From IMG/VR virus record IMGVR_UViG_3300026521_000343, positions 5,265-69,264 of that record: a stretch of 64,000 bases of DNA; one strand, 5' to 3'. The stretch is from a virus. Positions 24,049 to 57,860 of this stretch are shown here, piece by piece. Each line of letters opens with the position of its first letter. Position 1 is the stretch's first letter. The notes beneath the pieces are model-generated. The model did no database searches, was not told the DNA's origin, and saw only the letters and a list, made by a program, of their open reading frames with translations. The position numbers were made by a program, and so were the translations under genes.

Positions 24049-24396
24049 ATGCCGCATAACAATTTTAATGACATAAGTGTTACAGCTACGATGGTGGCTG
24101 TAATATCTGCACTCTGGGGTGCAATTTTAAACTTTGCAAAAAGAGATACTTCTGAAAAAACTGCATTTAGAAAAATACTTATTTTTATATCTGATTTAAT
24201 GATCAGTAATGGTTTTACGATGCTAACTTATTTGGGCTTTGTTGGATATGGAGTAAATGATTTACTATCAGTGTCTATCGCAGGATTTATGGGATACTTG
24301 GGAATAAGGTCATCTCACCTTATTGAGTTAGTAATCGCTGAAAAAGTTGGTGCTAAAAAAACATTTGATTATATTAAAGAAGAGGGGTATGAATAA
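24049..24396 (+). CDS. Holin, copy 1
   Basis: Three hydrophobic segments; at the start of the lysis cassette. Confidence 0.7.
   Translation: MPHNNFNDISVTATMVAVISALWGAILNFAKRDTSEKTAFRKILIFISDLMISNGFTMLTYLGFVGYGVNDLLSVSIAGFMGYLGIRSSHLIELVIAEKVGAKKTFDYIKEEGYE
24097..24371 (+). repeat. 275-bp exact direct repeat, copy 1
   Basis: gctgtaatatctgc...aaaacatttgatta, identical by eye to 57561-57835. Confidence 0.92.
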
Positions 24397-24761
24397 TGTG
24401 GAGTCAAATAGCTAGTATTTTTACAGGCGGTGCAACAACGGCAATCAGCGATATAGCGAAAGAGTGGATACAGACCGACAAAGAGAGTGCTGAGGCTAAA
24501 GCAATAATGGTTAAAACACTTGACCCTAACGGGAAAATGCGGAGAGACTTGTCACAATTCGCTTCAAGAATGTATGGGCTATATTTGATTATCACTTTAA
24601 TACTTCTTGTTATGATTTATTTTAAGATAGGTGATGTTGAGGCTGGGAAACTTGTTGCTGATAAAATAACTGATCTGTTTACCCCAATAACAACATCATG
24701 GGGGTTGATTGTTTCAGCTTCATTTGGTGTTAATTTTGCTAATGTAAAAAAGGGAGTTTAA
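24396..24761 (+). CDS. Holin-like membrane protein
   Basis: TM segments; lies between holin and endolysin. Confidence 0.6.
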   Translation: MWSQIASIFTGGATTAISDIAKEWIQTDKESAEAKAIMVKTLDPNGKMRRDLSQFASRMYGLYLIITLILLVMIYFKIGDVEAGKLVADKITDLFTPITTSWGLIVSASFGVNFANVKKGV

Positions 24762-25169
24762 GTGAGAAGTAAATATTTCAAAGTACACGAATTAGTACCT
24801 AAGAAAATGTACGAAAAGTATGGTAAAAAATCTTGGAGATATGTCGATACAAGATTGATTGAAAGCATCGACAAATTAAAAGAGATTTTTAATCTAGGTA
24901 CTATGACGATAAATAATTATGTTTGGGGTGGTAGCAGGGAGTGGAGCGGTATTAGAACACCTGAAAGCCCATATTACAGCTACGGTTCGCAACATAGCTA
25001 TGCAAATGCGATTGATGCTGTATTTAGTGACTATTCAGCCGAAGAAGTGCGAAACTACATTATAAACAATCAACACGAATTTACACACATTAAAGGCATG
25101 GAACTAGGCGTTGATTGGTTACACATTGATTTGAGAAACGAAGATGAGCTAACACTTTTTACAGTATAA
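24762..25169 (+). CDS. Endolysin, peptidase M15-like
   Basis: SQHSYANAID and WLHID zinc-peptidase motifs. Confidence 0.75.
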   Translation: MRSKYFKVHELVPKKMYEKYGKKSWRYVDTRLIESIDKLKEIFNLGTMTINNYVWGGSREWSGIRTPESPYYSYGSQHSYANAIDAVFSDYSAEEVRNYIINNQHEFTHIKGMELGVDWLHIDLRNEDELTLFTV

Positions 25170-25200
25170 CTATCTATGTATTTTTTGGCATCTTCTATTG

Positions 25201-25755
25201 TCAAAACGTAATTTCGTCTAAGTTTACATCAATCTCAGGCACTTGATTATGGGATGGTCTCTCTTGCTTCGGTTGGTTTGATTGCCCGTTGTTTTGTTGT
25301 TGTGGCGGTGGCGTTGGTTGCCCTTGTGCATTTTAATATTCATAAGTCGGCTGCGGTCTTTGCTGCTGTTGTTGATAGCTTTGTGCTTGCCCTTGAGAAG
25401 TAGCATTGTAGCCACCACCTTGATTGTTATCACCTTTTGAGTCTAGCATTTGCATTGTCTCTACAATAACAGAGTGTTTTGATCTTTTTTGTCCATTTTG
25501 GTCAACCCATTGTTCAAAATTTAATCTTCCCTCAACAAGGATCTTACTTCCTTTTCTAAGGTATTGGTTTGCAACTTCGGCACTTCTTCCAAAAAAAGTA
25601 ATATCAACGAAACATACTTCCTCTTTTTTCTCACCATTGCTGGTAAATTTACGGCTTGTAGCAATTGCACTTTTTGCAATGCCCGTTCCGCTTTGAGAGT
25701 ATTTTAACTCTACGTCCCTCGTCATATTCCCTACTAAAATTATTTTATTAAACAT
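25201..25755 (-). pseudogene. ssb: Single-stranded DNA-binding protein with in-frame TAA at 25333-25335
   Basis: Intact OB fold (NKIILVGN..GSKILVEGRL); frame continues past the TAA to ..EIDVNLDEITF and TGA at 25201. Confidence 0.8.
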
Positions 25756-25987
25756 AAGTTACATCCTTTTTATTTTCAATTCCATCTATCCACGAAAGCA
25801 AAACTATACCTGCTTCCATCAACTCTTTAGAGTGTTTTACCATCTCACCGTTAAAACCGCCTAGATATTCCATATCAACTGCAACGTCTTGCATATAATA
25901 AACTAACTTATTCATCTTTTCAATAAGCAAATCTTTGCTGTTTTCTCGCTCACTATTTCCTATTAATCTTAAACATTCGTTTTTCAT
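25748..25987 (-). CDS. Hypothetical phage protein
   Basis: Coupled ORF in the leftward operon. Confidence 0.5.
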   Translation of the reverse strand: MKNECLRLIGNSERENSKDLLIEKMNKLVYYMQDVAVDMEYLGGFNGEMVKHSKELMEAGIVLLSWIDGIENKKDVTYV

Positions 25988-25988
25988 C

Positions 25989-26399
25989 TTATAATTCCTC
26001 TCTATTTGGGAACGGTGGCACAACTACGCCTTTATTCCCTAGTGCTAATGAAATAACATCTATAATCTTTTCAAACTCATTTTTGTTTAGTTTCGTTGTC
26101 GAGTTTTTATTATACAATGATTTCACAACTGCTTTGAAAATATTCTCCTTGACAGTTTCCATCGTCCACGTGGTATCAGCCTTGATAACTTGAGATACAT
26201 ATAATCCGTGATGATTTAATGTGTTTGCGATTTGCCCACACCATAGATGCAGGGATTTATTTTGTTGCATAGAACGAATATCAATGTTTTTAATATCAAC
26301 TTCATAAATAGCTCCATCACTCATCTTTTTGAGTTTTTCAACATCTTCGTCAGAGAATGGAATTAATATTCCACGCTCTTTTTTAAATGCTATTTTCAT
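25989..26399 (-). CDS. NinB-like recombination protein
   Basis: RSMQQNKSLHLW..IA; STTKLNKNEF. Confidence 0.7.
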   Translation of the reverse strand: MKIAFKKERGILIPFSDEDVEKLKKMSDGAIYEVDIKNIDIRSMQQNKSLHLWCGQIANTLNHHGLYVSQVIKADTTWTMETVKENIFKAVVKSLYNKNSTTKLNKNEFEKIIDVISLALGNKGVVVPPFPNREEL

Positions 26400-26898
26400 C
26401 TATCTTTTTTCTTAATTTGTTTATTTTTAAAGTTGGCTCTTTATGTACAACTTCAAGTCTAGCACCATCAACATTAACACCATCTTCAATAGCATTTTTA
26501 ATTGCTGTCTTATCAAGAACCGTTTTAAAATAACCTGCATTGACTAAAGCCTCTTCATTCTCTACAATAAGCTCAATTTTTGGCTTAGAATTTAGAATAG
26601 AGACACTTGATACTGCCATACCGCTTAACTTACTTACTCCAACATCACTTAACCATTTTGAAGAACCTATCTTGATAGTTTCAATCTGTTTTTGAACATC
26701 TGCTTTTAATGCCTTAATATTTGCCTCAGCCTCCTTAATGTTATCAATCTTTGCTTCAAGATTTGCAGCTGAAAACGCAATGTAGTCAGCTACAGCCTCA
26801 GGTGATTTTTCTTTTAACTTCCAATCTAAAATTGCGCCTACATTTTCAATATTTGCGGTCTCTAAAGAAGTTTGCTTTGTATTTAGTCCTTTTTCCAT
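26383..26898 (-). CDS. Siphovirus Gp157-like protein
   Basis: LDKTAIKNAIEDGVNVDGARL. Confidence 0.75.
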   Translation of the reverse strand: MEKGLNTKQTSLETANIENVGAILDWKLKEKSPEAVADYIAFSAANLEAKIDNIKEAEANIKALKADVQKQIETIKIGSSKWLSDVGVSKLSGMAVSSVSILNSKPKIELIVENEEALVNAGYFKTVLDKTAIKNAIEDGVNVDGARLEVVHKEPTLKINKLRKKIDENSI

Positions 26899-27494
26899 TA
26901 TTTAGCCTTTTTGATTTTCTTTTGGAGAGAATCAACTGCTTGTTGGAAATAAGCTTGAGGAAACTCTTTTAGTGTTGTTGCATTGTAGTATGCCAAAAAC
27001 TCAATTAAGTCGGCTTTAGAAGCATCTACTAGCGAATTAAGCATATTGAACTGCTTGTCTGTGATTGTATTTTTCAATTCCTGATTTATATCATCACCTG
27101 TTTGTAACATAAGTATTTTCAAGAGAGCATTTTTAACTGCGTATGTCAAACATTTGTTTGCTGCTTTATCACTATTATCTTCTGCATGAGCTTCACTTCT
27201 TATAACAATTTCAGAGCCATCATCAACGTCTATAAATTTAACATCATAAACAGCTTCCATTCTTATTTTTTTAGTTCCGCTTTTTGCTGCACCATCAACA
27301 GAGATTCCTTTTTCTATTTGATAAGGAACTACAATTACACCCTCATCTACAAAATGCTCTCTCACTACGCTCAACACTTTATCATGTGTTACTATTGAAA
27401 AAGTGTTATTTCCAAAGCCAAGTCTGCCATCTTTTGCTACAAACTCAACTTTTTTCATTATGTTATTTATCTTTTTATATATCCCGTTACTCAT
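26898..27494 (-). CDS. ERF-family ssDNA annealing protein
   Basis: DNSDKAANKCLTYAVKNALLKILML.TGDD. Confidence 0.8.
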   Translation of the reverse strand: MSNGIYKKINNIMKKVEFVAKDGRLGFGNNTFSIVTHDKVLSVVREHFVDEGVIVVPYQIEKGISVDGAAKSGTKKIRMEAVYDVKFIDVDDGSEIVIRSEAHAEDNSDKAANKCLTYAVKNALLKILMLQTGDDINQELKNTITDKQFNMLNSLVDASKADLIEFLAYYNATTLKEFPQAYFQQAVDSLQKKIKKAK

Positions 27495-27505
27495 ATCTTT
27501 TCTCC

Positions 27506-27688
27506 CTAGAATGGAATAATAATCCACCCGTTTTTTAAATCTCCAATTACTTTTTTAATATCCTTAACTTCATCAAGCATCGGCATTAAATCGTAACACT
27601 CACCACCTTTCCAAACAGTCGCAAATTCTGCTTTTTTATAATCATAATCTGCTAGTTCAAAAAGCTCTTTTAAAAGTTCCTTTTTCAT
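27506..27688 (-). CDS. Hypothetical protein
   Basis: ORF in the leftward operon. Confidence 0.45.
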   Translation of the reverse strand: MKKELLKELFELADYDYKKAEFATVWKGGECYDLMPMLDEVKDIKKVIGDLKNGWIIIPF

Positions 27689-27917
27689 CGCATTAACTTT
27701 ATCATTCGCAGATCAAGTTTCATTGACTTGCACTTTTTAATGTTGTTTTTGCATTCTTGTATTAACTTTTTCATAATGCACTCCTTAAACAAATTGCAAT
27801 ACCACCCGCTCTCATAATCTTCTTCATAAGCGTTTTAGCTTGTTTTGCATTATCGAAATAGGTGCTGATCCATTTACCTTGATGTAGTTCTCTTGTTACC
27901 CACATTTCTAATTCTCC

Positions 27918-28544
27918 TTATACTTTGATATATCTATGATTTTTAATACATTTTAAAGTTCTATCTAAATTTTTAAAATTTTTAAAATCAAAAGATGCTT
28001 TTTTTGAAAGTCTTGATATTTTACTTTGATTTACTTTTGTAATAAATGATAATCCAGAAAACGTGCAAATTTTACTTTCTTTCATTTTAACAATTATTGA
28101 TTCTTTATCATACGCTTCAAGAGTTAAATTTAAAATATTACTATCAATATATTGTATAAAATCATCTACACTTTTAACAAGATGTTTTGTTACAAATTTA
28201 TGCAACACTATAAATCTTCTATACTTTTCATTATTATCGATACCGAATAAAGAGAGCCTATAATTATAATCAAGAGTTAGATTAATTTCTTTGTTATAAT
28301 AAAATGAAAAATTACAACAAAGGTTATTTAATTCATCTAGAAAATTTTTTATTCTAACCATATAATATTCATCTATATTATCTGCACATTTGTCGCAAAA
28401 ATAATAATCTTTATCAGTTATATCTCTAACAGTTGAAAAAATATCTCCAACATATAGTTCATTGATATTCATTGTTGATCCATACTCAATAATATTATTA
28501 TTTCTATATGCATTATCATCTCCACAAATATAACAATAGCTCAT
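27918..28544 (-). CDS. Hypothetical AT-rich protein with two CxxC pairs
   Basis: CYIC..CDKC; very low GC. Confidence 0.55.
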   Translation of the reverse strand: MSYCYICGDDNAYRNNNIIEYGSTMNINELYVGDIFSTVRDITDKDYYFCDKCADNIDEYYMVRIKNFLDELNNLCCNFSFYYNKEINLTLDYNYRLSLFGIDNNEKYRRFIVLHKFVTKHLVKSVDDFIQYIDSNILNLTLEAYDKESIIVKMKESKICTFSGLSFITKVNQSKISRLSKKASFDFKNFKNLDRTLKCIKNHRYIKV

Positions 28545-28783
28545 GATAAAGCCTTTATATTCCCTACTAATTTTACATTTTTATCTTTTAGCTCATTTGC
28601 AGCCTTAACAGCATTTATTTCTGTCTTATAGCTTTCTATTATTTGGTGAGACATTTTAGACATCGCAATAGCTTCGTTACTATCACATTCTCCAGCTCTT
28701 AACTTAATCATTTGCTCGAACATAAACTTTCTTAATGTTGCCAATGTATTATCTGCCTTTTCTTGCTCAGTAATAATTTCCAT
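28541..28783 (-). CDS. Hypothetical protein
   Basis: AAGGA SD; coupled to the next ORF. Confidence 0.55.
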   Translation of the reverse strand: MEIITEQEKADNTLATLRKFMFEQMIKLRAGECDSNEAIAMSKMSHQIIESYKTEINAVKAANELKDKNVKLVGNIKALS

Positions 28784-29470
28784 AACTAATCCTTTTTATT
28801 ATCATAATACTCAAAAATAAATATAGTAATTACTGTAAATAGCCACAGCAACACCACGCCAAAAATCCCATAAATCATATTGAAATAATATTCAGTCATC
28901 GAAGTGCCAATTCTAAGCACAGTGCAAAAATAATTGATATAACAATACTTTCTATAAATAGAGATTTAATAGGGTGCTTCATACACCATCGCCAATAATT
29001 TCGCTCTACCTCATTAAAACTTTTCATAATATCTCCTTTTTTGAACTTAAAAAGCTCACGACACACATCAAGGAAAAAATGATAAAACCTTTTAAAAACA
29101 AAATATCGAGTTCAAAATAAAGGAGTAACTATTTTTTTTAATGTGTGTAATCAACTTTTTTAGAAACACACCGTTCGGAATTTAGCTGAATTGGAGATGT
29201 GCTTCATCAAAAAGTTTAAATCGGTTTATTTAGTGACCGAAATTCTATTTTAATCCATTCACTATCTAGGACTTATAAATAAATATTAAGAAATAAAATC
29301 TCTTAAATAACTCAAACAAAAAGCTAAACTTCTCGTTTGCATAGGAAAATTATAATAGAATATTTCTTAAATGTTTATTAATTTAGTAATACCTTTTACA
29401 ATTTGTAAAGTAATACCTATTTAAGGTTAGTTATTGTAGAATTTCACATATACATATTAAAAGGAATAGA

Positions 29471-29632
29471 ATGAAAGTGTTTTCAATAAAGCTGAATGAG
29501 GCTGATTATAATCTACTAAGGACCGCTGCAATGAAGTCATATGATGCAGATAAGCATAAGAAGTCTTACGGGGTTGGAACGTTTATTAAAGAGGCTTCAA
29601 TTTCAAAAGCTAAAAGGGTGGTTAAAAAATGA
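29471..29632 (+). CDS. Small ribbon-helix-helix-like regulator
   Basis: Hand translation MKVFSIKLNEADYNLLRTAA..VGTFIKEAS; AAGGA SD; first gene of B's rightward operon. Confidence 0.55.
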   Translation: MKVFSIKLNEADYNLLRTAAMKSYDADKHKKSYGVGTFIKEASISKAKRVVKK

Positions 29633-29967
29633 TAAGTAAAGAATTATTAAGTGCTGTTACAGGAATGGAATGCAGTGAAGGAAGAGAATTATATGGGAAA
29701 TGGAGCAACAAGATAGAGTTCTCTATATCTAAGCACAATCATTTTAACTATGCAGTAAAAGATACGATTAACATCTATGAACTTGCGTATAAATGCAAAA
29801 AATGGGCTTTAAAGAATAATGTAAAATTGTGGTCAATCTTAGATAGTTACAATAGTGCAATAGTGAGAATTAATGAAATTAGCAAAAGAGAATTTTATTC
29901 ACACACAGAGCCAGATGCAATATTTAAAGCTTGTGAATGGATATTAGAAAATAAAGATAAGAAATAA
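29629..29967 (+). CDS. Hypothetical protein (paralog of 38266-38688)
   Basis: SKELL..INIYELA..CK.WA..TEP..FK.C.W. Confidence 0.65.
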   Translation: MISKELLSAVTGMECSEGRELYGKWSNKIEFSISKHNHFNYAVKDTINIYELAYKCKKWALKNNVKLWSILDSYNSAIVRINEISKREFYSHTEPDAIFKACEWILENKDKK

Positions 29968-30182
29968 TGGATAACATCGCACAACTAAACACACAGCTAG
30001 ACAGAGATAAAGTGCTAGACAATGCTATTTATTATGCAATATGCGGGCTACACGGCTTAAAAGATGGTGACACTATTACAAGTGTGGTGAGGCTTGAAAT
30101 TGCTATGTATTATATTCAGAGAGCTATTAACAATATTAAGGAGAATAAGAACTATGAATCAAAAACAAAGAATACTAACTGA
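29967..30182 (+). CDS. Hypothetical protein
   Basis: Coupled ORF. Confidence 0.45.
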   Translation: MDNIAQLNTQLDRDKVLDNAIYYAICGLHGLKDGDTITSVVRLEIAMYYIQRAINNIKENKNYESKTKNTN

Positions 30183-30378
30183 CTTGTTAAAAGGCTTACA
30201 CGTCAATATGCTTAACGACCTGGAACGATACGGAAGCAGTTGCAGAAGCAGAATATCCGAACTACGTGCTAGTGGTTACCCAATAAAAGATTATTTTGAA
30301 CTTTCACCAAACGGAAGCAGATACAAAGTTTATTTTCTTGATGCGGAATATCTAAAGGAGTATCACAATGCAAAATAA
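30154..30378 (+). CDS. Winged-HTH protein
   Basis: QKQRIL..RSRISELRASGYPI..YFL; AAGGAG SD. Confidence 0.65.
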   Translation: MNQKQRILTDLLKGLHVNMLNDLERYGSSCRSRISELRASGYPIKDYFELSPNGSRYKVYFLDAEYLKEYHNAK

Positions 30379-30580
30379 AGAGAAGTTGGAAGAGTTGAAA
30401 CGAGATCACGACATAGAAATCAGAATGAGAACTGATTTTGAGTTTGCACTTGAAACAATATCGGAGAAACACAACATCACAGCGGATGATATTTCAAATT
30501 TTAAAGATACTATTACGGAATTAAAAGAGTATTGGAACGACATTAGTTGTGATGAGGTTTTTGAAGCTGTTTTGTCGTAG
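30368..30580 (+). CDS. Hypothetical protein
   Basis: AAGGAG SD; acidic ORF. Confidence 0.55.
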   Translation: MQNKEKLEELKRDHDIEIRMRTDFEFALETISEKHNITADDISNFKDTITELKEYWNDISCDEVFEAVLS

Positions 30581-30605
30581 CAAAGTTTTTAATTAAGCTT
30601 TGTTT

Positions 30606-30763
30606 TGGTATAATTACAGCATACAAAATTCAATAAATGCAAGTTCATAACTTAGCGGTCTCGCTTGCATTTATTGAGTCTTGAAGTGAAGAGACCGCTA
30701 TCCTTCACATATAAAACAATCAAACTCTAAAATTAAAATCTAGCGGTAACTAAAGGTTACATA
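30606..30763 (+). ncRNA. Structured leader RNA (two hairpins with complementary loops) ahead of B's replication genes
   Basis: TGGTATAAT 30606-30614; 14-bp stem 30630-43/30664-77; stem 30686-91/30703-08; tagcggtctc and gagaccgcta are complementary. Confidence 0.6.
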
Positions 30764-31132
30764 ATGGAAAATAAAATATACAAGGCTTCTGCTACATACG
30801 ACATAGAAAAATCTATAATAGTATCAGTAATAGAAAATAGCTTTATTGGTAACGATAATAGAATAGTTGATGTTTCTCTTAATAGCTCTTATTTTAACGA
30901 TAGTTTTCATAAGTTGATAGTCAATGCCATAAATAGATTAAAAGAGCTTGGAGAGCCTATAGACTCAGATTTTATACGACTTAAGTTTATAGAGGTTAAA
31001 AAATGGAATACTGATTATGATAATAAATTGATTGAAATTATGTATCATAATCCAATAGGTACACTTGATCTGTTTAATAGCTATTATTCAAAACTTAAGA
31101 AACTAAATAACAGCAAGGTGGCAATGATATGA
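30764..31132 (+). CDS. Stand-alone DnaB-helicase N-terminal-like domain
   Basis: IEKSII..YFNDSFHKLIVNAINRLKELGEPID; resembles the N-domain of 1663-2922. Confidence 0.7.
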   Translation: MENKIYKASATYDIEKSIIVSVIENSFIGNDNRIVDVSLNSSYFNDSFHKLIVNAINRLKELGEPIDSDFIRLKFIEVKKWNTDYDNKLIEIMYHNPIGTLDLFNSYYSKLKKLNNSKVAMI

Positions 31133-31788
31133 AAAAAGCATTTAATTTTTATGCTTCTTATGATGAAGTATTTCAGGAACTTGATTTAAATCAAAAAGGA
31201 ATAATGATAAATGCTATCTTAGACGTTCAGTTTTTAAGAAAACATATAGATGATATATCATTCAAAGATAAGATACTTTCTATAGTATGGAAAGGTATGA
31301 AGCACAGTATTTTAAAACAGATAGATGGATATTGTAGAGCAAATAAAACACCCTATAATAGGGAGCTTTTTGCCCCTAAGGCAGACTTTCAACCTAGCCC
31401 TAAGGCAGACTTTCAACCTAGCCCCAAGCAAGTACAAGTACAAGTACAAGAGGAAGAACAAGAGCCTATTGTCCAAACTAAAAGTTTAGACGCTAGTTTT
31501 AAAATTGCAGAGTATTTATTAAATAACATCTTAAAGTTAAATACATCTTTTAAGAGACCTAACCTAAATACATGGGCTAAAGATATTGACAAAGCTATAA
31601 GAATTGACAATAGAACAGAAGAACAACTAAAATATTGTATTGACTGGATATATTCACATGAAGGAAGCTTTTGGCAAAAAAATATCTTAAGTGGGAAAAA
31701 ACTAAGAGAAAAGTTTGATACAATAAATATGCAAATGATTACAAAAGATAATAGTCAAACATCAGGGAACATAATATGCAACTGGTAG
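31129..31788 (+). CDS. Replication initiator
   Basis: KKAFNFYASY N-domain; WAKDI..IDNR..FWQKNILSGKKLREKFD C-domain (lambda O-like); internal repeats. Confidence 0.75.
   Translation: MKKAFNFYASYDEVFQELDLNQKGIMINAILDVQFLRKHIDDISFKDKILSIVWKGMKHSILKQIDGYCRANKTPYNRELFAPKADFQPSPKADFQPSPKQVQVQVQEEEQEPIVQTKSLDASFKIAEYLLNNILKLNTSFKRPNLNTWAKDIDKAIRIDNRTEEQLKYCIDWIYSHEGSFWQKNILSGKKLREKFDTINMQMITKDNSQTSGNIICNW
31374..31450 (+). repeat. Tandem 24-bp repeat x2 plus caagta x3 (putative phage B origin)
   Basis: ccctaaggcagactttcaacctag at 31374-31397 and 31398-31421. Confidence 0.75.
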
Positions 31789-32756: not shown

Positions 32757-32884
32757 TATAAAAACAAGAAATATTTAACTTTATCTTTGATACAATACTT
32801 ATGTAGAAAGTTTATGCGAGGAGTCTATCTACACGCTCCCCAGCACTAGACTCTTCACATAAATTTAGTCTGGGGATGCTACAC

Positions 32885-34019: not shown

Positions 34020-34020
34020 A

Positions 34021-34245: not shown

Positions 34246-34402
34246 AAGCTACTATATTATTCGCAATAATAATTGCTATTATTTCAATATCAACAATGTT
34301 TAATTTGAATAATTTTAGCAAAGAGTATAATAATTTTACTCTTTTGATTATGATTGTAGCATTTGGTTTTGCTAAAATATTAGAAGATAGAAAGAGTTAG
34401 TT

Positions 34403-34951: not shown

Positions 34952-35012
34952 TTTATAAGTAATTAAGTTTACCTTTGATATACTTTTAACATATAAAAAG
35001 CAAAGGAATAGA

Positions 35013-35713: not shown

Positions 35714-35715
35714 AA

Positions 35716-46469: not shown

Positions 46470-46471
46470 TT

Positions 46472-49319: not shown

Positions 49320-51959
49320 ATGCAAAAAGATTTAAAAATAAAAATTAGCATTGACAAAAAGACCGGTGAATTAAAAGTTATCTCTAGCGAGTTTGACGAG
49401 CTCGGCAATAAAATAAATGATGCTGACGTAAACACAAACAGTTTAACTTCAAGTTTAATTGGTGTTGCTAAAGGCGTAGTAGGAATCTATGCTGTAAATA
49501 AAGCATTTCGTGCCGTTACAGACAGTGGGTTTGCTTTCAATATGCAACTAGAAGATGCGAAAGCGGGTCTAACTGCTTTGTCAGTAGCTGTTCAAGATAA
49601 ATCTATACCCGTTATGGAGCGATACAATATCGGCAATAAAGAAGCTATTGAAACACTAAGAGAACTCCAAAGAATAAACGTTGAAACCCCACACACACTA
49701 AATCAAACAAACCAAATTTACAAAGCTATGTACGTGTCAATGAAAAAGGCAGGTGCGTCTACTAAAGATATGGTAGAAATTACGAGATCATTGTCAATCG
49801 CATCAGGAGCTGCGGGAATAGAGTTTAATTCACTATTAGCTGGTGTAGATGGTTTGGCAAGTGGTACGGTTTTAGTCAATAGTGATTTAGGTAGATTTTT
49901 ATCCTCATTAGGCTTGACTAATCAAAAACTAAAAGAGAGTAAAAATGTAGTTAAACTCCTTGAAGATACATTGAAAGATTTTAAAGCTGCAGATACTATG
50001 AAAGTGTCACTATCTAATCTTGAAAACGCTTGGAACTCACTCACAGGAGAAATAACAAAGACATCATTTGAGGCATCAAAAAAAGAGATAAATTCATTAG
50101 CAGGTACATTTAATGAACTTACTCACTGGATACACGAAGCAGGTGTGCAATGGTCTTCTGTTTTTGAAGTTACAAAAAGTGGTAAACTAGATGATTTAAA
50201 AATAAAACTTAAAGACATTGAAGATAGAATAAAATCTATTAAAGAGAAACAAACCGGTTTTTTAAGTGGAATTTTAAATCAAAAAGATATTTACAATGAC
50301 TTGCAAGCTAGATTATTAGAAAAGAGCGAATTAGAAAAAACAATAGCAGATTTAAAGAAAAAACAAAAAAATAGTGTAAAAGAAATACACGAGTATAAAA
50401 ATAAAATAAGCAGTTCTGAAGCTAAAAAGTTTATCAGTAATTTAGATTACGAAACTGAATTAGAATTTGACAAAATTTCTGCAAAGTGGGATTATGAGGA
50501 CAAATTAGCAGAAGATGCGAAAAAACAAAAACTAAAAGATAGTCAAGACTGGATCAAGTCACTAAAAGAATTTTATGCTATTGATGTCACAAAAGGGCTG
50601 AACGATCAAAAAACAAAAGAAAAAACAAAAGTAACTTTTGAAGATTGGGGAAAAACTCTAAACAGTTCCATATCAAACTCAATAGTAGATGCACTTCAAA
50701 GCGGAGACGTTGAGGGAGCGATACAAGGGCTTGGAAGTTCAATCGGATCTTCAATGCTTCAATCTTCTACTTCTAACTTAGTCGCAGGAGGAAGTCAACT
50801 GTCTGCAGCTGGTGGTGCTATGTCAATGGGCGGAATCTACGGAATAGCAGCTGGGCTTGGGATTGGTGCAGTATCAAAATTCATGGATAATGGGACAGCA
50901 TCAAAAACGTCTCAACAATACGCTGATGAAGCATTTAATAAATTTATCTCAAACATTGAAAAGGCTTCAAAAGCACTTGAATCATTCGGCAACGTAGGTA
51001 GCTCATTCTCAACCGAACTAGACACATTAAATAAAGAGATACAAGTAAAACAAAATATTTTAAATGAGTATAACTCAAAACCGCATTATATTGTTACTAA
51101 GTCAATGAGGGATACTGTTTCAAACGACATAAACAGACTCACTTCTCGTAAAAATGAAATTCTTGTAAACCAACTTGGCGGAAGCATAGACTTTTCGAGG
51201 ATGAACCTATCAGACGTAAGCAAAGCTCTTCCTGCTAACTTCTCGTTAGATTCTTATAACAACGCTCTTGATGATATTAATAGACTTGCACTTAAGGCAA
51301 AAGAAGTCGGTTTCAACAATATGAGTGAAGCCGATATACAACGCTTCACGGACTTAACTGCTAACGGCAGCGTATGGCAAGCAGGTAAAGACTACGCTGA
51401 TGCTATATCATTGATTGATGATGCAATGAAGAAATCAGTATCGAATATCAAAGCATATGAGGATAGTTTTAAGACACCTCGACAGTTAGCAGAAGATATG
51501 GCGAAAGACTTAGGAGTGACACTTGCAAGCTCAACTAAGGGGCTTGACAATCTTTTCAACTCTTTAAAGGGCGGAGTCGATGGACTAAACGATGCTGAAA
51601 GTGAACTTTTAAAAGCAAACAAAGACTTAATAGACTCGAATATGCAATCATTGAATAATGCGTTTTTAGGGCAGTATAGCCCACTTACAATGAGCCAAAA
51701 AACAGACTATGCAAATAGCATTGCAAGTGGAGCAATCCCGTCAAACTTAAGCAGTAGTGAAAGTTCATTACTTGCATTGCAAACAGCTATGAATAGCACG
51801 ACGGACGAGAACGAAGCGACCAAAGCTTTTAACCGATACATTGCAACGAATGATGCAACAGAGCCAGACAGCACGAGGACAGACATAGTGAACGAACTTC
51901 GCTCAAATAGAGAAACACTTAACGATATAGTTGATAGGCTTGAAAGGATTGAAGCATGA
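49320..51959 (+). CDS. Tape measure protein (phage B)
   Basis: 879 aa; ETPHTL; SNLENAW; C-terminal half homologous to A's TMP. Confidence 0.9.
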   Translation: MQKDLKIKISIDKKTGELKVISSEFDELGNKINDADVNTNSLTSSLIGVAKGVVGIYAVNKAFRAVTDSGFAFNMQLEDAKAGLTALSVAVQDKSIPVMERYNIGNKEAIETLRELQRINVETPHTLNQTNQIYKAMYVSMKKAGASTKDMVEITRSLSIASGAAGIEFNSLLAGVDGLASGTVLVNSDLGRFLSSLGLTNQKLKESKNVVKLLEDTLKDFKAADTMKVSLSNLENAWNSLTGEITKTSFEASKKEINSLAGTFNELTHWIHEAGVQWSSVFEVTKSGKLDDLKIKLKDIEDRIKSIKEKQTGFLSGILNQKDIYNDLQARLLEKSELEKTIADLKKKQKNSVKEIHEYKNKISSSEAKKFISNLDYETELEFDKISAKWDYEDKLAEDAKKQKLKDSQDWIKSLKEFYAIDVTKGLNDQKTKEKTKVTFEDWGKTLNSSISNSIVDALQSGDVEGAIQGLGSSIGSSMLQSSTSNLVAGGSQLSAAGGAMSMGGIYGIAAGLGIGAVSKFMDNGTASKTSQQYADEAFNKFISNIEKASKALESFGNVGSSFSTELDTLNKEIQVKQNILNEYNSKPHYIVTKSMRDTVSNDINRLTSRKNEILVNQLGGSIDFSRMNLSDVSKALPANFSLDSYNNALDDINRLALKAKEVGFNNMSEADIQRFTDLTANGSVWQAGKDYADAISLIDDAMKKSVSNIKAYEDSFKTPRQLAEDMAKDLGVTLASSTKGLDNLFNSLKGGVDGLNDAESELLKANKDLIDSNMQSLNNAFLGQYSPLTMSQKTDYANSIASGAIPSNLSSSESSLLALQTAMNSTTDENEATKAFNRYIATNDATEPDSTRTDIVNELRSNRETLNDIVDRLERIEA

Positions 51960-53392
51960 CATTTCATATACCAATTGATAGTGAATTAGTAAGCACGGAT
52001 GTTGCTTATCAGGTTGCTGAGTATGATGAAAATGCAACATATTCAGATGGCGAAGAAGTAAGAAAAGGCGATGATATTTATCAAGTGTTCAACTACAGTG
52101 ATACAACACCATACCCAGATTATATTGACTATTACCCATATGCTTGGAAAGACAAAGTTAATATTAATGGTGTTGGGTATGAGAAGTATGACATTGTAAC
52201 GGGCGTTGGTTGTTGGCAGATTGTGGATGCTTTATCTGTAACTAATTCTAAGTTAGGGGCAGATGTAGATGCAACTGATATAGATATGGCTATCTTTAAT
52301 ACTTGGGATGGTGTAGCAGATGGAGTTTGGCATCAGTTTTCAGTGCAAGGTGGCAACTGTAGCTCTATAAATGGAAATGACTATTTTAAATTCACAACGT
52401 TATCAGTTTATGACGACCACTATACAGTTCAAGTAATGCAAAACGATACAGACTCAGACACAGATGCAACGTTAGCTGGAAATATAGAAATGTATCCAGA
52501 TAATAAGATAATAGCAAGACCTAACCCGTATTTTATAAAAGGTGAAGATGGGTACATTAAAAAGGTTTTTGGCTTTACTTCTGATTTTATTGCAGAAGAG
52601 GGGATAAAAAAGGGATTATGGAAAAAGTTAGATAAGAATTATGATGAAATAAATAAACATAAATTAGAATTTTTAAGAAAATCAGTTAAATCAGTCCCGT
52701 TTGACACTAAACAATTTACAAGTGTTTCTGTAGTTGGCAAACAAAATTGGACAGTTAAATCAGGTAGCAGAATAACAAGCTTGATACTAGGCAGTATAAA
52801 ATCTTCATCAATTACGATACAAAGGCTAGACATATCAGACACTGTTCACGATATAATAACAATAACTCCTAAGATACTAATACTTGACGGAAAGAATCAG
52901 GAGCCGACTACCGAGATAATTTATTTCAATGACGATTTAATCACAAGAAGTGTAATCATTACAATTTCAGCACAGACACAAGTCGCTGTTTCTCAAGTTG
53001 GAACTATAATGTTGTGCAACTATTTAGACATAGGAGCGACAGACCTTAGTTTTTCTCACAACGTGAAAAACTATGATAAAAATCAAGTAAGTCAAACTAG
53101 TGGATATGTTGACCACATTAAGGGTAATCGTGTAATTCAACACAAGGGTAGTTTTTATATAAATATTACTGATTACGACAAAACTGTTATGATTAATAAA
53201 AGATTTACACAAGAACTTATAGCTATTGATAGTAGCGATAATGTAGATAATGAAGAATCAGACAGTGAAAGAGTTTTTTCGTCAACAAGAATAATAGGCA
53301 GATTAAAACAGATGAGTTTAAAAACAGATGTTAAAGATAACATTATTAACAAAAATGTTAGAGTATCATTTGAATTCGAGGAGATAGTGTAA
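51956..53392 (+). CDS. Tail tip/baseplate protein
   Basis: Homologous to 17611-19059. Confidence 0.6.
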   Translation: MTFHIPIDSELVSTDVAYQVAEYDENATYSDGEEVRKGDDIYQVFNYSDTTPYPDYIDYYPYAWKDKVNINGVGYEKYDIVTGVGCWQIVDALSVTNSKLGADVDATDIDMAIFNTWDGVADGVWHQFSVQGGNCSSINGNDYFKFTTLSVYDDHYTVQVMQNDTDSDTDATLAGNIEMYPDNKIIARPNPYFIKGEDGYIKKVFGFTSDFIAEEGIKKGLWKKLDKNYDEINKHKLEFLRKSVKSVPFDTKQFTSVSVVGKQNWTVKSGSRITSLILGSIKSSSITIQRLDISDTVHDIITITPKILILDGKNQEPTTEIIYFNDDLITRSVIITISAQTQVAVSQVGTIMLCNYLDIGATDLSFSHNVKNYDKNQVSQTSGYVDHIKGNRVIQHKGSFYINITDYDKTVMINKRFTQELIAIDSSDNVDNEESDSERVFSSTRIIGRLKQMSLKTDVKDNIINKNVRVSFEFEEIV

Positions 53393-54936
53393 TGTTTGAT
53401 AGTACAGATAGATTCCCAACGCAATTAGCAGACATAACAGTATCAGGATTCAGTGCATCCGCTAGCCTTGGAATTAGATGCTTAAACAAGAAAGTAATAA
53501 ATAGCAGTAACAACAATGTGTCATTTACATTTTTATTTAAAGAAAAAGAGCAAAGCGCAGGCTTCTTGGGATGGTATATAAACAATTTAGAGTATGGTAC
53601 TAAAGAGTTTTTGGTTGATGTGCCTATGTTTGGAATTATGAAAACGTGGCGATGTGTTTTTACTACAAAATTAGCAGAAAATGTTGTATCTACGGAAGTT
53701 AGAAAAATCTCAATGACAGCAAGAATACTTGATGATTTAACTCTTGTTAGAAATGTTTATAACTCATTATTATCTATGTCTTTAATAAACTCATTAGAGA
53801 TGACTCAAGGAGCAGGAGATGCTACATTTACAAGGGCATCAGCTGCCACCTATAGAGAAAATAATATACTAAAATATGCATCTATTGATGAGCCACGATT
53901 TGAAAGTAATGGGGTACTTACTGAGCGTTCATCTGAAAATATTGCAACTTACTCATCTATAGATAGTGCAAATTGGTCTGCAACACGTGCAGATATTACA
54001 GTCGGGGATAAAAAGTTTATTGATAGTATTGAGAATATGGCTAAGGTAATATGTAATGAAGATGGACAAGTGTATATAGACCAACAGTATTTAAGCATTT
54101 CAGGTCAGGCATATTCACAATCATTTTATGTTGAAAAAGGAAATACGGATGGACTATTCAGAATAGTATTTCACGCAAACTCTTTTACTGACAGTATCGC
54201 TGCTTACTTTGACTTAAATCTTGGAACAGTAGAGCACGTTAATGACGGAGTCACTGCAAATATTGAATATATATCAGACGGGATATATAGAATATCAGCT
54301 ACAGCGGTAGCTACAACTGACAATACAACTGATAATTACTTATCATTATTATATGCTACTAATAACTTAACAGTTAATGATTACTTTTATGTATGTGGTG
54401 CTCAACTTGAGAAAAATACTGAAACGTCTAGTTATATTAAAACGGTAGATACACCTATCTTAAGAAGTAGAGATATATTTACAGTTCCGATGGAAAGCAA
54501 TTTTATAGACTTGTCTAGTGGTGAGGAATTTACAATATCGTTTGATTTTAATTATGGCGGCAATACCACAGAAAGCAATCAGTGGATAATCGCTAACTAT
54601 GTTGATTCTATTAATAATTTCGGAATGTATGTTACGCCAACTAATGAAGCTCATTTTACATTTGATGGAAATGGAACACTGTCAGATGTATCATATATGA
54701 TATCAACAAACACGCAGACAAAAGTAATTATATGCTTTGAAGATAATATATTTAGTGTATATATAAATAACGTATTAATTGGAGAAACATTATCAAAAGG
54801 AATGACAACAAGCGGAAATAATTATATTATATTCGGTGGTTACAATTTGACAACAAACAATTTAGGAAGATGTAATTATAAAAACATAAAAACATTCAAT
54901 GTAAAATTAACAGACAGAGAGAGAGCTTTGTTATGA
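53392..54936 (+). CDS. Tail protein with fibre/lectin-like domains
   Basis: Homologous to 19059-20669. Confidence 0.65.
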   Translation: MFDSTDRFPTQLADITVSGFSASASLGIRCLNKKVINSSNNNVSFTFLFKEKEQSAGFLGWYINNLEYGTKEFLVDVPMFGIMKTWRCVFTTKLAENVVSTEVRKISMTARILDDLTLVRNVYNSLLSMSLINSLEMTQGAGDATFTRASAATYRENNILKYASIDEPRFESNGVLTERSSENIATYSSIDSANWSATRADITVGDKKFIDSIENMAKVICNEDGQVYIDQQYLSISGQAYSQSFYVEKGNTDGLFRIVFHANSFTDSIAAYFDLNLGTVEHVNDGVTANIEYISDGIYRISATAVATTDNTTDNYLSLLYATNNLTVNDYFYVCGAQLEKNTETSSYIKTVDTPILRSRDIFTVPMESNFIDLSSGEEFTISFDFNYGGNTTESNQWIIANYVDSINNFGMYVTPTNEAHFTFDGNGTLSDVSYMISTNTQTKVIICFEDNIFSVYINNVLIGETLSKGMTTSGNNYIIFGGYNLTTNNLGRCNYKNIKTFNVKLTDRERALL

Positions 54937-55421
54937 GTTTGGTATTAGACACACTTCAAGACCTCGCAGATGCCATTGCAAAGATAGGAGGCGCAGGTTC
55001 AAAGGTAAACGCAGGGATGCTTGAGAATTTAAAAAGCAATGCCTTCGCAAGGGCATTCGGAGATGCCACGAAACGTTTTAAAGTTGCGGATGCTAAAGAC
55101 GATAAAGACGCTGTTAATATGCAGTCACTTAAAGAGATTGGAGTAGGGCAGACTTGGATTGATGAAACTTCAAATAGAGCCAAAGGAGTTACTTATACAA
55201 ATACATCAAATAAGCCAATACAGCTTTTATTGAATTTGGGTGGAGATGGTAGCGGAAACAACAGCTGTACTTTTTACATAGACAATGTAGATAGTGGGGA
55301 AATCAGAACAGACCACGATGGAAAAACTATATCCCCTATTGTAAACATAATAATACCAGCTGGTAGTGTTTATAAAGTAGATGGTAGTTTAACTATTGTT
55401 AGATGGCTAGAACTTAAATAA
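54933..55421 (+). CDS. Short tail fibre protein
   Basis: IGVGQTW.DETSNR..GVTYTNTSNKPI. Confidence 0.65.
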   Translation: MSLVLDTLQDLADAIAKIGGAGSKVNAGMLENLKSNAFARAFGDATKRFKVADAKDDKDAVNMQSLKEIGVGQTWIDETSNRAKGVTYTNTSNKPIQLLLNLGGDGSGNNSCTFYIDNVDSGEIRTDHDGKTISPIVNIIIPAGSVYKVDGSLTIVRWLELK

Positions 55422-55437
55422 AACAAGGAGATAGAAA

Positions 55438-55698
55438 ATGAAAGAAATTGACGTTACTAAAAAACAGTTAACAGTAAACTTAGAAAGCAATGAGGAAGCG
55501 CACATTACAAATGTGGCAACACTCCAAAATTGTTCAAATTCATACATACTTTTTAGTTATGAACCATTTGGTGCTGAAAATGAGGGTGCAATTTTGCCAC
55601 TAAAAGAGCCTTTATTTTTGCCAGTTAACGTGACAGAAATATATATAAAAGCATCTAGTCAGCCGTCAAGAGTTGAGCTTTTTGGAGTATCATTATGA
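55438..55698 (+). CDS. Small tail-associated protein
   Basis: Homologous to 21633-21893. Confidence 0.55.
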   Translation: MKEIDVTKKQLTVNLESNEEAHITNVATLQNCSNSYILFSYEPFGAENEGAILPLKEPLFLPVNVTEIYIKASSQPSRVELFGVSL

Positions 55699-57503
55699 GT
55701 AATTTTAATTTTGCATTTAACTCACAGAAAGGTCGTGAGGCTGTTATTAATTCTACGATAGTTAAAAGTGTTGAAGCACTTGAGAATATAGCTTTAACAG
55801 CTAAAGATGGACAAAAGTGCTACTTAGATGATGGAGGTCGTAGCGGTAACTTTACTATGCGTTCAGCACGAAGTAGTGAAAATGATGGGGGGACTATCTT
55901 CAATGGGATGGAGCGTGATGATGTTGTTTTTAAAAGTGTAAAATGGTTTGGTGCAAAAGTTGATAGTAATACTAATGACACTAACGTTTTGCAAACATTA
56001 ATAGATTCTCAAAATCAAGAATGGCTTACAAATGGTGCTGAATACAAAGCACTTCCTATCTATGTACCTAGTGGCGAGTGTGTTATTTCTTCACTATACA
56101 TTAAGGGGGGTACTAATTTAGTGTGTGATGGAGTCTTTAAACCTGCTGACGATATTTCACCCATGGTTTATATGGCAGGTTCTAACATAAACATAAATAA
56201 ATTACACTTATACGGAAATTTAAGAAGTACATATGAAGGAACACCTTTTTGTATTAATACAGCAGACACAACTACTTCTGATATATTAGACACAGACCAT
56301 TGGAAACAGATTTCATATGTGAACATTGGAGAACTCTATATTAATGGAGTTCAAGGGAAAAGCGAAGCTGGTTTTAAGGTAAGTTCAGACGTTGGTGTAA
56401 GCTGGTGGGAAATTGATAAACTAATTATTCGAGACTGTACTAAAGGTGTGGATATTTCAGTTACTAATGGAGGCTATTTCAACAGTGCTAAAATTAAAGG
56501 AGAGATACATCATTGTGTTAAGTCTATAAACTTAACAACCGACGATACATCAGAAATTAGCTCAAATGTATTTGACTTTCATACACAGCCTTTGAATACT
56601 ACTAGTGCAAGTGGAATTTCTTGTAATAGTGAGCGTGTTCATTATAATAAATTCTTAGGGCGAACTTGGGATTGGCAAACAAATTATAGTTATAGTATCT
56701 ATGATATAGGACAGTATAACTCATATGATAATAACTTAGTAACGTTAGAAAAATATGGGAAGGTATTATTTGGCAGATATTCAAGACCGATACTTGAAGC
56801 TAATACTATGCCATCATATCAAAATTTATATCAATGGAATACACTATCTCATAATGGGATTGGTTTTCAAGATAATTTATTAGCAAATGCTGGCAAAACT
56901 AAATCAGGTGTAGTGATAACTACTAATAGCCCTAATCATCACTATTCAATTCCGTATTTGTTTGAACAGCAATTTCATCCTAGTTACAATACGTATCTTG
57001 ATTTCCCTACTGATGGAACGCCTCTCACTTTAGAAATTGAATTCCCTGAAGTGCAAACAATTTATACAGTGGGTATTGGACTATTATACTTAACAAGTTC
57101 ATGTACTGATTGTAAAATAGAGTTAGACCCAGATGGAAATGGGTATACTAATACTTTTCTTGATGTTACTGGGAACATAACACAAGAATTTATAGCTACT
57201 CGTGAAAACTCAGCAGGTTATTTATGTAAAAAAATGAGAATTACTTTTGATAACTTCGTGGATAAAAGTGACCCATTAAATATTGTACCAACTTCTGAGG
57301 ATAACTTATCATTAAAATCATTAGCTGTTTTTGGGATAGGAAAAAGACAAGCATTCGCATCAATGTGGGATAATAAATTCTTAGGACTTAAAGGAGTAGC
57401 TTCAAATGAAGTTCCTGATAATTCATTTTTTCTTGACACAGATGACTCTACGCTCAAGTTCAAAACTGATGATGGTACTGTTAAGACAGTATCGTTAGCA
57501 TAG
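55695..57503 (+). CDS. Tailspike/depolymerase (beta-helix)
   Basis: NDGGTIF, SVKWFGAKVD..DT..LQ, IYVPSG. Confidence 0.75.
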   Translation: MSNFNFAFNSQKGREAVINSTIVKSVEALENIALTAKDGQKCYLDDGGRSGNFTMRSARSSENDGGTIFNGMERDDVVFKSVKWFGAKVDSNTNDTNVLQTLIDSQNQEWLTNGAEYKALPIYVPSGECVISSLYIKGGTNLVCDGVFKPADDISPMVYMAGSNININKLHLYGNLRSTYEGTPFCINTADTTTSDILDTDHWKQISYVNIGELYINGVQGKSEAGFKVSSDVGVSWWEIDKLIIRDCTKGVDISVTNGGYFNSAKIKGEIHHCVKSINLTTDDTSEISSNVFDFHTQPLNTTSASGISCNSERVHYNKFLGRTWDWQTNYSYSIYDIGQYNSYDNNLVTLEKYGKVLFGRYSRPILEANTMPSYQNLYQWNTLSHNGIGFQDNLLANAGKTKSGVVITTNSPNHHYSIPYLFEQQFHPSYNTYLDFPTDGTPLTLEIEFPEVQTIYTVGIGLLYLTSSCTDCKIELDPDGNGYTNTFLDVTGNITQEFIATRENSAGYLCKKMRITFDNFVDKSDPLNIVPTSEDNLSLKSLAVFGIGKRQAFASMWDNKFLGLKGVASNEVPDNSFFLDTDDSTLKFKTDDGTVKTVSLA

Positions 57504-57512
57504 GATTTAAAA

Positions 57513-57860
57513 ATGCCACATAACAGCTTTAACGATATAAGCCCTATAGCAACTATCATAGCTGTAATATCTGCACTCTGGGGTGCAATTTTAAACTTTG
57601 CAAAAAGAGATACTTCTGAAAAAACTGCATTTAGAAAAATACTTATTTTTATATCTGATTTAATGATCAGTAATGGTTTTACGATGCTAACTTATTTGGG
57701 CTTTGTTGGATATGGAGTAAATGATTTACTATCAGTGTCTATCGCAGGATTTATGGGATACTTGGGAATAAGGTCATCTCACCTTATTGAGTTAGTAATC
57801 GCTGAAAAAGTTGGTGCTAAAAAAACATTTGATTACATTAAAGAAGAGGGATATGAGTAA
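57513..57860 (+). CDS. Holin, copy 2
   Basis: Protein identical to 24049-24396 apart from the first ~16 aa. Confidence 0.7.
   Translation: MPHNSFNDISPIATIIAVISALWGAILNFAKRDTSEKTAFRKILIFISDLMISNGFTMLTYLGFVGYGVNDLLSVSIAGFMGYLGIRSSHLIELVIAEKVGAKKTFDYIKEEGYE
57561..57835 (+). repeat. 275-bp exact direct repeat, copy 2
   Basis: Identical by eye to 24097-24371. Confidence 0.92.

Follow-up and report, generated by a model that had tools for sequence, protein, structure and literature searches.

Two phages of vent Campylobacterota in one IMG/VR record, probably joined during assembly at a shared 275-bp holin tract

In phage lambda, Int-independent lysogeny by recombination with a resident prophage belongs to classical genetics, and phage satellites of the P4 and PICI type hitchhike on a helper phage. 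Carriage by recombination, known from lambda genetics, has also been discussed for tandem prophages, and we know of no environmental phage in which it is documented. In assembly, a circular genome that shares an exact repeat with another genome yields the same graph as an insertion. Short-read viromes often contain contigs that are chimeras of related viral genomes, and such contigs have been documented in simulated viromes, according to the part of that study drawn on here (PMC4247695). A homologous-recombination route is discussed for Mycobacterium abscessus tandem prophages (PMC9934374) and for Sulfitobacter phages (PMC7305329); in the sections of these papers used here, the authors of the former favoured integrase-mediated formation and rejected homologous recombination. 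For lambdoid phages, the relevant passages of De Paepe et al. 2014 (PMC3945230) describe mosaic exchange by Rad52-like recombinases, and ERF, Orf/NinB-like and Rap/NinG-like functions are named there.

We analysed a window of 64,000 nt, that is, the whole stretch from position 5,265 to 69,264 of IMG/VR record IMGVR_UViG_3300026521_000343 (full length, 69,264 bp), in which one phage (B) is written inside another (A); coordinates below are those of the window. As in chimeric contigs that arise from an inter-genomic repeat, the insert lies between exact repeat copies and, taken together with one of them, makes up a whole circular genome, and the depth changes in a step, although here the conclusion is drawn from the repeat, the gene sets and the depth rather than from resolved junctions. 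Two phage genomes in series, with direct repeats of the shared segment at both junctions, are also the predicted product of a tandem lysogen formed by homologous recombination, but the present record differs in having no host junction, no 1:1 depth and an outer phage in its attP form. Like the mosaics in the cited part of PMC3945230, the locus has, where two modules meet, a short and recently exchanged tract of near identity, in phages whose neighbouring proteins are otherwise 39-53% identical, and B carries ERF, NinB and NinG; the hosts differ (E. coli there, vent Campylobacterota here), and the present case is known from sequence alone. According to the same passages, exchange between virulent coliphages and temperate ones was not found, and B is without lysogeny genes.

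The shared holin tract and the lysis genes

Self-comparison by script identified an exact direct repeat of 275 bp, in which 24097-24371 and 57561-57835 (both on the plus strand) are 100% identical at an offset of 33,464 bp; a search of the whole record gave two matches at 100%. Each copy lies within a plus-strand holin gene of 115 aa. Holin copy 1 (24049-24396) has an A-type 5' end, followed by the shared tract and then the lysis genes of B, while holin copy 2 (57513-57860) has a B-type 5' end, followed by the shared tract and then the GH108 cassette. Both copies pass the Pfam gathering cut-off for PF16083 (LydA holin, 28.4 bits) marginally, with 28.9 bits for copy 1 and 29.5 bits for copy 2. 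The homologous block around the first repeat copy extends over 356 bp (24043-24398) at 95.2% identity to the region of the second, and the mismatch map placed 14 mismatches in 54 bases upstream of the repeat and 3 in 27 bases downstream. Similarity ends at a TAATG stop/start overlap that is common to both copies. The earlier note had described an exact 275-bp repeat inside two holins whose flanks have diverged, and the coordinates, the offset, the LydA matches and the mismatches all agree with this description.

Since the holin copies are 95.7% identical at the amino acid level, compared to 39-53% for the adjoining A and B tail proteins, the similarity of the tract is far above chance and distinct from its surroundings. 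The identical tract in the holin genes of A and B, two co-occurring Campylobacterota phages, is the trace of a recent homologous exchange. Because the repeat is in register, both holin ORFs remain intact in either the nested or the resolved arrangement.

On the B side, holin copy 1 is followed by a gene for a 121-aa membrane-like protein (24396-24761, plus strand), which had been called a second holin. It matched phrog_31219 (E 7.8e-39), a family of unknown function, so that the membrane-like character of the protein stands and the holin label is weak; a 63%-identical homologue lies after a holin in one relative (L006). The next gene (24762-25169, plus strand), previously described as an M15 endolysin, encodes an endolysin by its match to phrog_894 (E 1.5e-18), but the M15 assignment is weak, as the match to Peptidase_M15_3 (E 0.039, 14.5 bits) falls below the 23.2-bit gathering cut-off. 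A PDB sequence search with this endolysin gave no meaningful match (best E 0.3). The cassette after holin copy 2 (57860-58785, plus strand), which we assigned to A, comprises a GH108 endolysin with a peptidoglycan-binding domain (57860-58333; PF05838, E 1.5e-26; PF09374, PG_binding_3, E 2.9e-13) and then a 3TM holin-like protein (GTA_holin_3TM, E 3.3e-4; phrog_3427 holin).

Gene content of phages A and B

Phage A is a temperate siphophage of at least 35.8 kb. Its immunity region (1-1382, mixed strands) includes a CI-like repressor (minus strand, starting to the left of the window and ending at 516; phrog_4 and the repressor family phrog_6201), a 95-aa ORF and a CII-like activator (891-1382; phrog_101). 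The packaging and head module (3944-11507, plus strand) encodes HNH, terS, terL, portal, protease and an HK97-type major head protein, with three minus-strand ORFs inside it (6912-8448). The tail module (14849-24046, plus strand) runs from the tape measure to a 718-aa fibre encoded at 21890-24046, also on the plus strand. Downstream of the GH108 cassette lies a candidate attP (58786-58955), proposed from an AT-rich spacer flanked by two copies of TGTACCGTTTTTGTACCGTTTTTAT (repeat family D7), and then, on the minus strand, the genes for a 363-aa tyrosine integrase and a 98-aa excisionase-like protein (58956-60324; phrog_66, phrog_7735). The integrase matched PF00589 (E 2.6e-26, 92.9 bits against a 27.1-bit cut-off) and carries an N-terminal SAM-like domain (PF14659, 35.9 bits), as expected of a tyrosine integrase. 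It is the one enzyme of this type in the full 69,264-bp record (58956-60047, minus strand), in which no serine recombinase was found; the 64-kb window contains no tRNA genes. The order tail, holin, GH108, holin, attP, integrase that had been read for A is borne out, with attP as a candidate.

The tail, lysis genes, candidate attP and integrase of A are contiguous, the record ends in phage early genes with no host genes, and no attL or attR with host flanks is present in the record. A is thus in its excised attP form, without host DNA. Self-comparison found no overlap between the record ends, and the partial ORF at each end had no match among the PHROG families. Relatives of the A terminase were found at 16 loci, of which the longer contigs measure 34.6-38.6 kb. 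A 69-kb molecule would be about twice that length and, judged by these contig sizes, too large for the A capsid. One further record (G002) matches A from the replication genes to the tape measure and stops before the lysis genes.

Phage B, likewise a siphophage, has a genome of 33,464 bp with a lambdoid layout, genes of its own for replication, head and tail, and a set comprising ERF, SSB, NinB and NinG. Its early-left recombination module (25333-27527, minus strand; phrog_44, phrog_72, phrog_253, phrog_155) encodes SSB, a 91-aa ORF, a NinB/Orf-like protein, a Mu Gam-like protein and the ERF recombinase (26898-27527, minus strand). Genes for replication and nucleotide metabolism follow on the plus strand (31129-38269; DnaD/O-like protein, DnaB-like helicase, NinG/Rap, dUTPase and thymidylate synthase). 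The packaging and head module (40070-47413, mixed strands) contains terL, a minor head protein, portal, neck protein, scaffold and major head protein; the portal and neck protein block (43293-45015) is on the minus strand, and the inverted repeats around it are weak ones (24 nt at no more than 75%). The tail module (49320-57503, plus strand) extends from the tape measure to a 602-aa tail fibre with a pectate-lyase-like domain (55695-57503, plus strand), and its proteins are 39-53% identical to those of the A tail. Neither an integrase nor a recognisable repressor was found in B. The gene content agrees with the earlier view of B as a phage with its own head, tail and replication genes and an ERF recombinase, lacking an integrase and a recognisable CI. 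The B terminase has one relative, in a 36.6-kb record (G001), which is silent on the ends of B because terL and the adjoining 174-aa gene are all that it has in common with B.

The idea that B hitchhikes shares with the P4 and PICI-type satellites a reliance on the functions of another phage. B differs from these in having full head, tail, packaging, replication and lysis gene sets (terL, portal, scaffold, major head protein, tape measure and tail genes among them), and for this reason it is not a satellite. A and B have unrelated terminase, portal and capsid sets, and their tails are distantly related, which may point to a common host. When the insert is taken out along with one copy of the repeat, the result is two coherent phage genomes with two full module sets, as had been noted, the closure of the A circle aside.

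That the record is one contig is the sole point in favour of a single genuine 69-kb phage genome with two head, tail and lysis sets. We give this reading almost no credence, as it is contradicted by the two unrelated terminase, portal and capsid sets, by the size of the contigs that carry relatives of the A terminase, and by a threefold step in depth at the repeat.

Sequencing depth and the nested order

Depth was examined in Logan contigs of four runs (X1-X4), built with k=31, which is too short to bridge the 275-bp repeat. Of the words sampled from 19200-29199, a share of 0.94 is present in run X1, which may differ from the data set from which the record was made. In X1, the four long contigs listed for the A side (14631-22657) have 0 differing letters and word depths of 17.1, 16.1, 15.5 and 18.2, and the four listed for the B side (24686-34099), again with 0 differing letters, are at 51.8, 53.2, 49.3 and 53.7; these depths are per-contig k-mer means, unsuited to fine use. 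By bins, and leaving out the SSB bin, A ranged from 15.5 to 22.9 and B from 46.9 to 59.6. The depth of B in X1 is about 3.1 times that of A, which departs from a 1:1 stoichiometry, and hence no more than a third of B copies in this run can be part of a 1:1 cointegrate. Unequal depth of A and B, together with reads for the resolved junctions alone, had been set beforehand by the earlier note as a sign of a chimera, and the depth half of this sign is what X1 contains (15.5-18.2 against 49.3-53.7). In runs X2-X4 (shares of 0.45, 0.44 and 0.32), short fragments, 90-99% identical, of both halves were found, and never of one half alone. The joints in X2-X4, with sides of just 21-23 nt, were left out of the analysis.

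Taken together, identical direct repeats bound the insert, two coherent genomes are obtained, and the insert differs in depth from its flanks. Since the graph of a loop equals the graph of an insertion and the depths are unequal, the nested order is most likely a product of assembly, in which two separate Campylobacterota phages from a hydrothermal-vent community were placed in one record. The holins of A and B would have acquired the identical tract by recent homologous exchange; a circular B sharing the repeat with A would then give a graph leading from the left part of A through the repeat, the loop of B and the repeat again to the right part of A. An assembler that walked the loop once would have written B inside A. 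The alternative offered earlier, that the join was made in assembly at a repeat exceeding the k-mer length, is the better explanation in view of the depth and the excised state of A.

The proposal that B is nested in A as a cointegrate and hitchhikes on the integrase and repression of A fared poorly against the gap in depth of about 3.1-fold and the excised state of A, no integrated state having been observed. In its full form, B would be a temperate phage without an integrase, whose normal lysogeny comes about when it inserts by homology into an A prophage, at the holin, with use of the A integrase and repressor. B does combine the lack of an integrase, a serine recombinase and a recognisable repressor with a lambdoid layout and a recombination module, and the shared tract sits where insertion leaves both lysis cassettes intact. 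However, the two genomes depart from 1:1, A has its attP form, free of host flanks, and the contigs searched included no prophage and no viral contig that carries a B-like insert; moreover, the loss of a lysogeny module, giving a lytic derivative, explains the gene content of B more simply, and the A repressor is not obviously able to silence the unrelated early region of B. We consider this mode of lysogeny highly improbable.

A weaker form of the proposal is that of a transient cointegrate, in which host RecA, or the ERF of B together with NinB and NinG, makes one crossover within the 275-bp tract and so turns the two circles into a minority molecule of ~69 kb that resolves in the same way. 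This could happen during co-infection, or when B infects a cell in which A replicates, and the contig would then depict a true but minor molecule. The exact tract in direct orientation and the co-occurrence of A and B in run X1 speak for it, as do the tails with their suggestion of a common host, and B encodes the ERF, NinB/Orf-like and NinG/Rap-like families, described as promoters of lambdoid phage-phage recombination in the cited part of PMC3945230. On the other hand, 17x against 52x means that most of B is not in a fused form, neither capsid would have room for the fused molecule, judged by the contig sizes of relatives, and the sequence itself does not separate a real fusion from a graph artefact. 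The depth also fits a mixture of a cointegrate at about 17x and free B at about 35x. With 275 bp of identity, RecA or ERF has ample homology for a crossover, and cointegrates must therefore arise at a certain rate where A and B share a cell. As an account of this record, a transient cointegrate is nevertheless unlikely; that B, without an integrase or repressor, really enters A by one crossover in the holin tract, aided by ERF, NinB and NinG, with the 69-kb molecule present in cells, is likewise doubtful. If the nesting were true, it would be a natural case of a phage carried via homologous recombination into another phage, B would gain a recombination-based means of carriage, and both phages could swap lysis and tail modules. 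The preferred reading is still that of an assembly join: the IMG/VR record very likely holds two genomes and is unfit as a 69-kb reference for statistics of genome size, completeness and gene content.

Relatives of the holin and recombination joints

A 60-mer from the centre of the repeat gave 0 matches in viral_contigs and 0 in metagenome_contigs, collections from which the window's own record was possibly left out, and these searches thus yielded no outside contig with either a resolved or an assembled junction. The tail-fibre proteins of A and B had no relatives in viral_contigs. The holin query returned 3 loci in viral_contigs and no close relative in genome_contigs. No holin match was found in the five viral records that hold terminase relatives or in the five MAGs that hold A-like terminases; four of 250 genomes of one Campylobacterales family gave matches, all at 42% identity or less.

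In one relative (L004), the holin start is 100% identical over 100 nt to 24044-24143, which covers the start region and the first 95 nt of the ORF of holin copy 1. The holin of L004 is followed by GH108 and 3TM genes that are 95% and 97% identical at the amino acid level to the cassette in the window. L004 thus pairs an A-type holin start with the GH108-3TM genes, so that the pairing of flanks predicted for a separate A does occur in nature. In run X1, the bin with the repeat has a depth of 90, which is a mixture of A, B and variant contigs and was set aside. Some contigs of this run diverge from the window sequence at 24147 and rejoin it at 24301 (depth 30.5), and another joins 21163 to 24044 (depth 34.4); these branching contigs would fit a third, L004-like phage with the same holin start. 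The modest conclusion is that three vent Campylobacterota phages that occur together probably have recombination joints in common within one holin gene, with a breakpoint exactly at the holin/endolysin border. Such joints are ordinary biology and fit the accepted picture of modular phage evolution.

A shared holin tract and two phage genomes

The IMG/VR virus record of 69,264 bp is classed as linear, and the window covers its bases 5265-69264. A script confirmed the 275-bp exact direct repeat that the earlier note had reported, with 24097-24371 identical to 57561-57835 at an offset of 33,464 bp. Two 115-aa ORFs, at 24049-24396 and at 57513-57860, contain the repeat in register; each narrowly exceeds the gathering cut-off of Pfam family PF16083 (LydA holin), and the similar block around the repeat spans 356 bp at 95.2% identity. 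Differing bases number 14 of 54 before the repeat and 3 of 27 after it, and the similarity ends at TAATG, where the holin stop and the start of the next gene overlap in both copies. The next-best likeness between the halves of the record belongs to the tail genes, whose nucleotide identity is 69-72% (71-78% over repeat families). When the proteins of A (the temperate phage on the outer parts) were compared with those of B (the phage written between the repeat copies), amino-acid identity was 39-53% for the tail genes versus 95.7% for the holin. The holin tract is genuine and stands apart from the sequence around it.

The early operon of A lies on the minus strand, where it takes up the leftmost 5.8 kb of the record, and encodes a RusA-like protein, an endonuclease and a CI-like repressor that ends at window position 516. 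Rightward of the repressor lie genes for a CII-like activator, a DnaB-like helicase, an HNH protein, terS and terL (phrog_9), then the head genes (portal, phrog_12; protease; HK97-type major head protein), followed by connectors, tape measure, tail genes up to a 718-aa fibre, and the first holin copy. After the second holin copy, A continues with a GH108 protein carrying PG_binding_3, a 3TM holin-like protein, an AT-rich spacer and a tyrosine integrase; past the integrase, to the record end, regulators, an excisionase-like protein and a P22-antirepressor-like protein are encoded on the minus strand. The spacer, 170 bp long, separates the lysis genes from the stop codon of the integrase gene and is flanked by two copies of a 25-nt motif, TGTACCGTTTTTGTACCGTTTTTAT (58772-58815 and 58944-58987). 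Judged from the sequence, these copies are candidate arm sites for the integrase within an attP, near which no tRNA gene was found. Without the insert, A measures 69,264 - 33,464 = 35,800 bp, and its layout is a circular permutation opened in the early-left operon. Since no host genes are visible at the two record ends, and since the lysis genes, attP and integrase are contiguous, A is in its excised form. Between terL and the portal gene of A, in the manner of a moron insertion, lie three minus-strand ORFs (6912-8448; 257, 146 and 86 aa) with only weak PHROG matches to families of unknown function; a relative of A (G002) has other small ORFs at the matching site.

B extends over 24372-57560 plus one repeat copy. 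Its lysis side encodes an endolysin (phrog_894, with only a weak M15 match), preceded by a membrane-like protein of 121 aa (phrog_31219) and followed by a minus-strand recombination module (SSB, NinB/Orf-like, Mu Gam-like and ERF proteins) and an AT-rich control region in which no confident HTH protein was found. Genes for replication and nucleotide metabolism (DnaD/O-like, DnaB-like, NinG/Rap, dUTPase, thymidylate synthase) precede an HNH gene, terL (phrog_3717) and a minor head protein gene, then a portal and a neck protein on the minus strand, scaffold, major head protein (phrog_247) and a tail set parallel to that of A. The whole record encodes a single PF00589 integrase and lacks any PF00239 recombinase, which, together with these inventories, shows that the gene content had been described correctly. 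The minus-strand block of B (43293-45696), which sits between the minor head protein and scaffold genes in an otherwise plus-strand structural module, comprises the portal (423 aa), the neck/tail-completion protein and two small ORFs. No strong inverted repeats flank it (the best being 24 nt at 75%), and either a natural inversion or a further quirk of the assembly may account for it.

Unequal depth of A and B in a vent metagenome

Public runs were searched with 19200-29199 (half A, half B), and 7 runs from 4 studies were listed. The best-matching run, X1, a hydrothermal-vent metagenome, contained 0.94 of the sampled words. Contigs of X1 and three further runs (X2-X4) were compared over 14100-34099; these were k=31 contigs, which are unable to span 275 bp. 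The long X1 contigs listed had no letters differing from the window, and in X2-X4 both halves were represented by fragments 90-99% identical. In X1, four contigs on the A side (14631-22657) had word depths of 17.1, 16.1, 15.5 and 18.2, versus 51.8, 53.2, 49.3 and 53.7 for four on the B side (24686-34099), which puts the abundance of B at about 3.1 times that of A. Per-bin depths were concordant (A 15.5-22.9 versus B 46.9-59.6), one ssb bin excepted. The earlier note had proposed B as a cointegrate nested in A and had named differing depths, together with reads supporting only the resolved junctions, as the mark of a chimeric assembly; the depths, one half of that mark, are indeed unequal.

A probable chimeric assembly and the cointegrate alternatives

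X1 contained two further contigs of interest here: one departs from the window at 24147 and re-enters at 24301 (depth 30.5), and the other connects 21163 to 24044 (depth 34.4). In an IMG/VR relative (L004), window 24044-24143, the holin start region and first 95 nt, is 100% identical to the first holin copy, followed by a diverged middle, a GH108 gene (95% amino-acid identity) and a 3TM gene (97%). A third, L004-like phage sharing the holin start is therefore probably present in the X1 community, and with it this gene would become a three-way tangle in the assembly graph. L004 is also a natural case of the pairing expected for a separate A, an A-type holin start followed by GH108, and in a second locus (L006) a holin is followed by a homologue of the 121-aa protein of B. 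The L004-like phage (locus L004, 1984-2384) appears to have exactly the holin start of A, but a holin that diverges in its middle and a tail fibre that differs, and so several recombination joints appear to lie within one 348-bp holin gene.

The longer contigs carrying A-terminase relatives are 34.6-38.6 kb, and none is near 69 kb. Given the threefold depth step, the excised form of A, a size about twice that of relatives and the tangled holin node, we consider it likely that the 69-kb nested record is an assembly chimera. Were a circular B to share one exact repeat (R) with A, the de Bruijn graph would be the same as for a repeat-flanked insertion, and an assembler walking the B loop once would write A-left, R, B, R, A-right. 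Such treatment of repeat loops is known of assemblers. One account of simulated viromes documents contigs that are chimeric between related viral genomes (PMC4247695). The nesting of B in A is most likely not real, unlike the repeat and both genomes; the biology left is an ordinary recombination tract at the lysis-module border of co-occurring vent phages. Caution is needed in using the record, which is very likely two genomes in one.

True cointegrate molecules, formed as a minority by crossover in the 275-bp tract, are unlikely, even with ample homology in 275 bp and with ERF, Orf-like and Rap-like genes in B, functions that one study found to drive mosaic formation in lambdoid phages (PMC3945230). 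The fuller proposal of the earlier note, that B is carried by the integrase and repression of A, is very improbable; A is excised, the depths are not 1:1 and the genomes searched gave no example. The missing lysogeny genes of B would be accounted for more simply were B a lytic derivative. Homologous recombination into a resident prophage is classical for lambda. As a route to serial prophages it was named plausible and then rejected in an account of M. abscessus (PMC9934374), and it is discussed in one of Sulfitobacter phages (PMC7305329). In view of these precedents, a cointegrate, if true, would be a new natural instance of a known idea and not a new kind of system.

Relatives, hosts and the ssb gene of B

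CheckV completeness (records G000-G005, with terminase relatives) was 54-68% for the 36-39 kb contigs of A-terminase relatives and 80% for the 69-kb record; over-long contigs may themselves have inflated the completeness references for this group of phages. A-terminase relatives occur in MAGs labelled Sulfurovum (77%), Sulfurimonas, Sulfurospirillum, Sulfuricurvum and Arcobacter. Among 401 sampled Campylobacterales genomes, 290 contain sequences with up to 87% nucleotide identity to the 5' part of the B ssb gene. At this gene (25439-26105), word depth exceeded 1000 in each of X1-X4, and loose ends occurred at 25438 and 25702. This identity indicates that the gene is host-like and that the depth spike reflects cross-matching of bacterial ssb. 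Phage-database matches were limited to short pieces of Sulfurimonas phage SNW-1, one in a 269-aa gene of A (2985-3556, 80% over 572 bp) and one in B (33206-33286, 94% over 81 bp).
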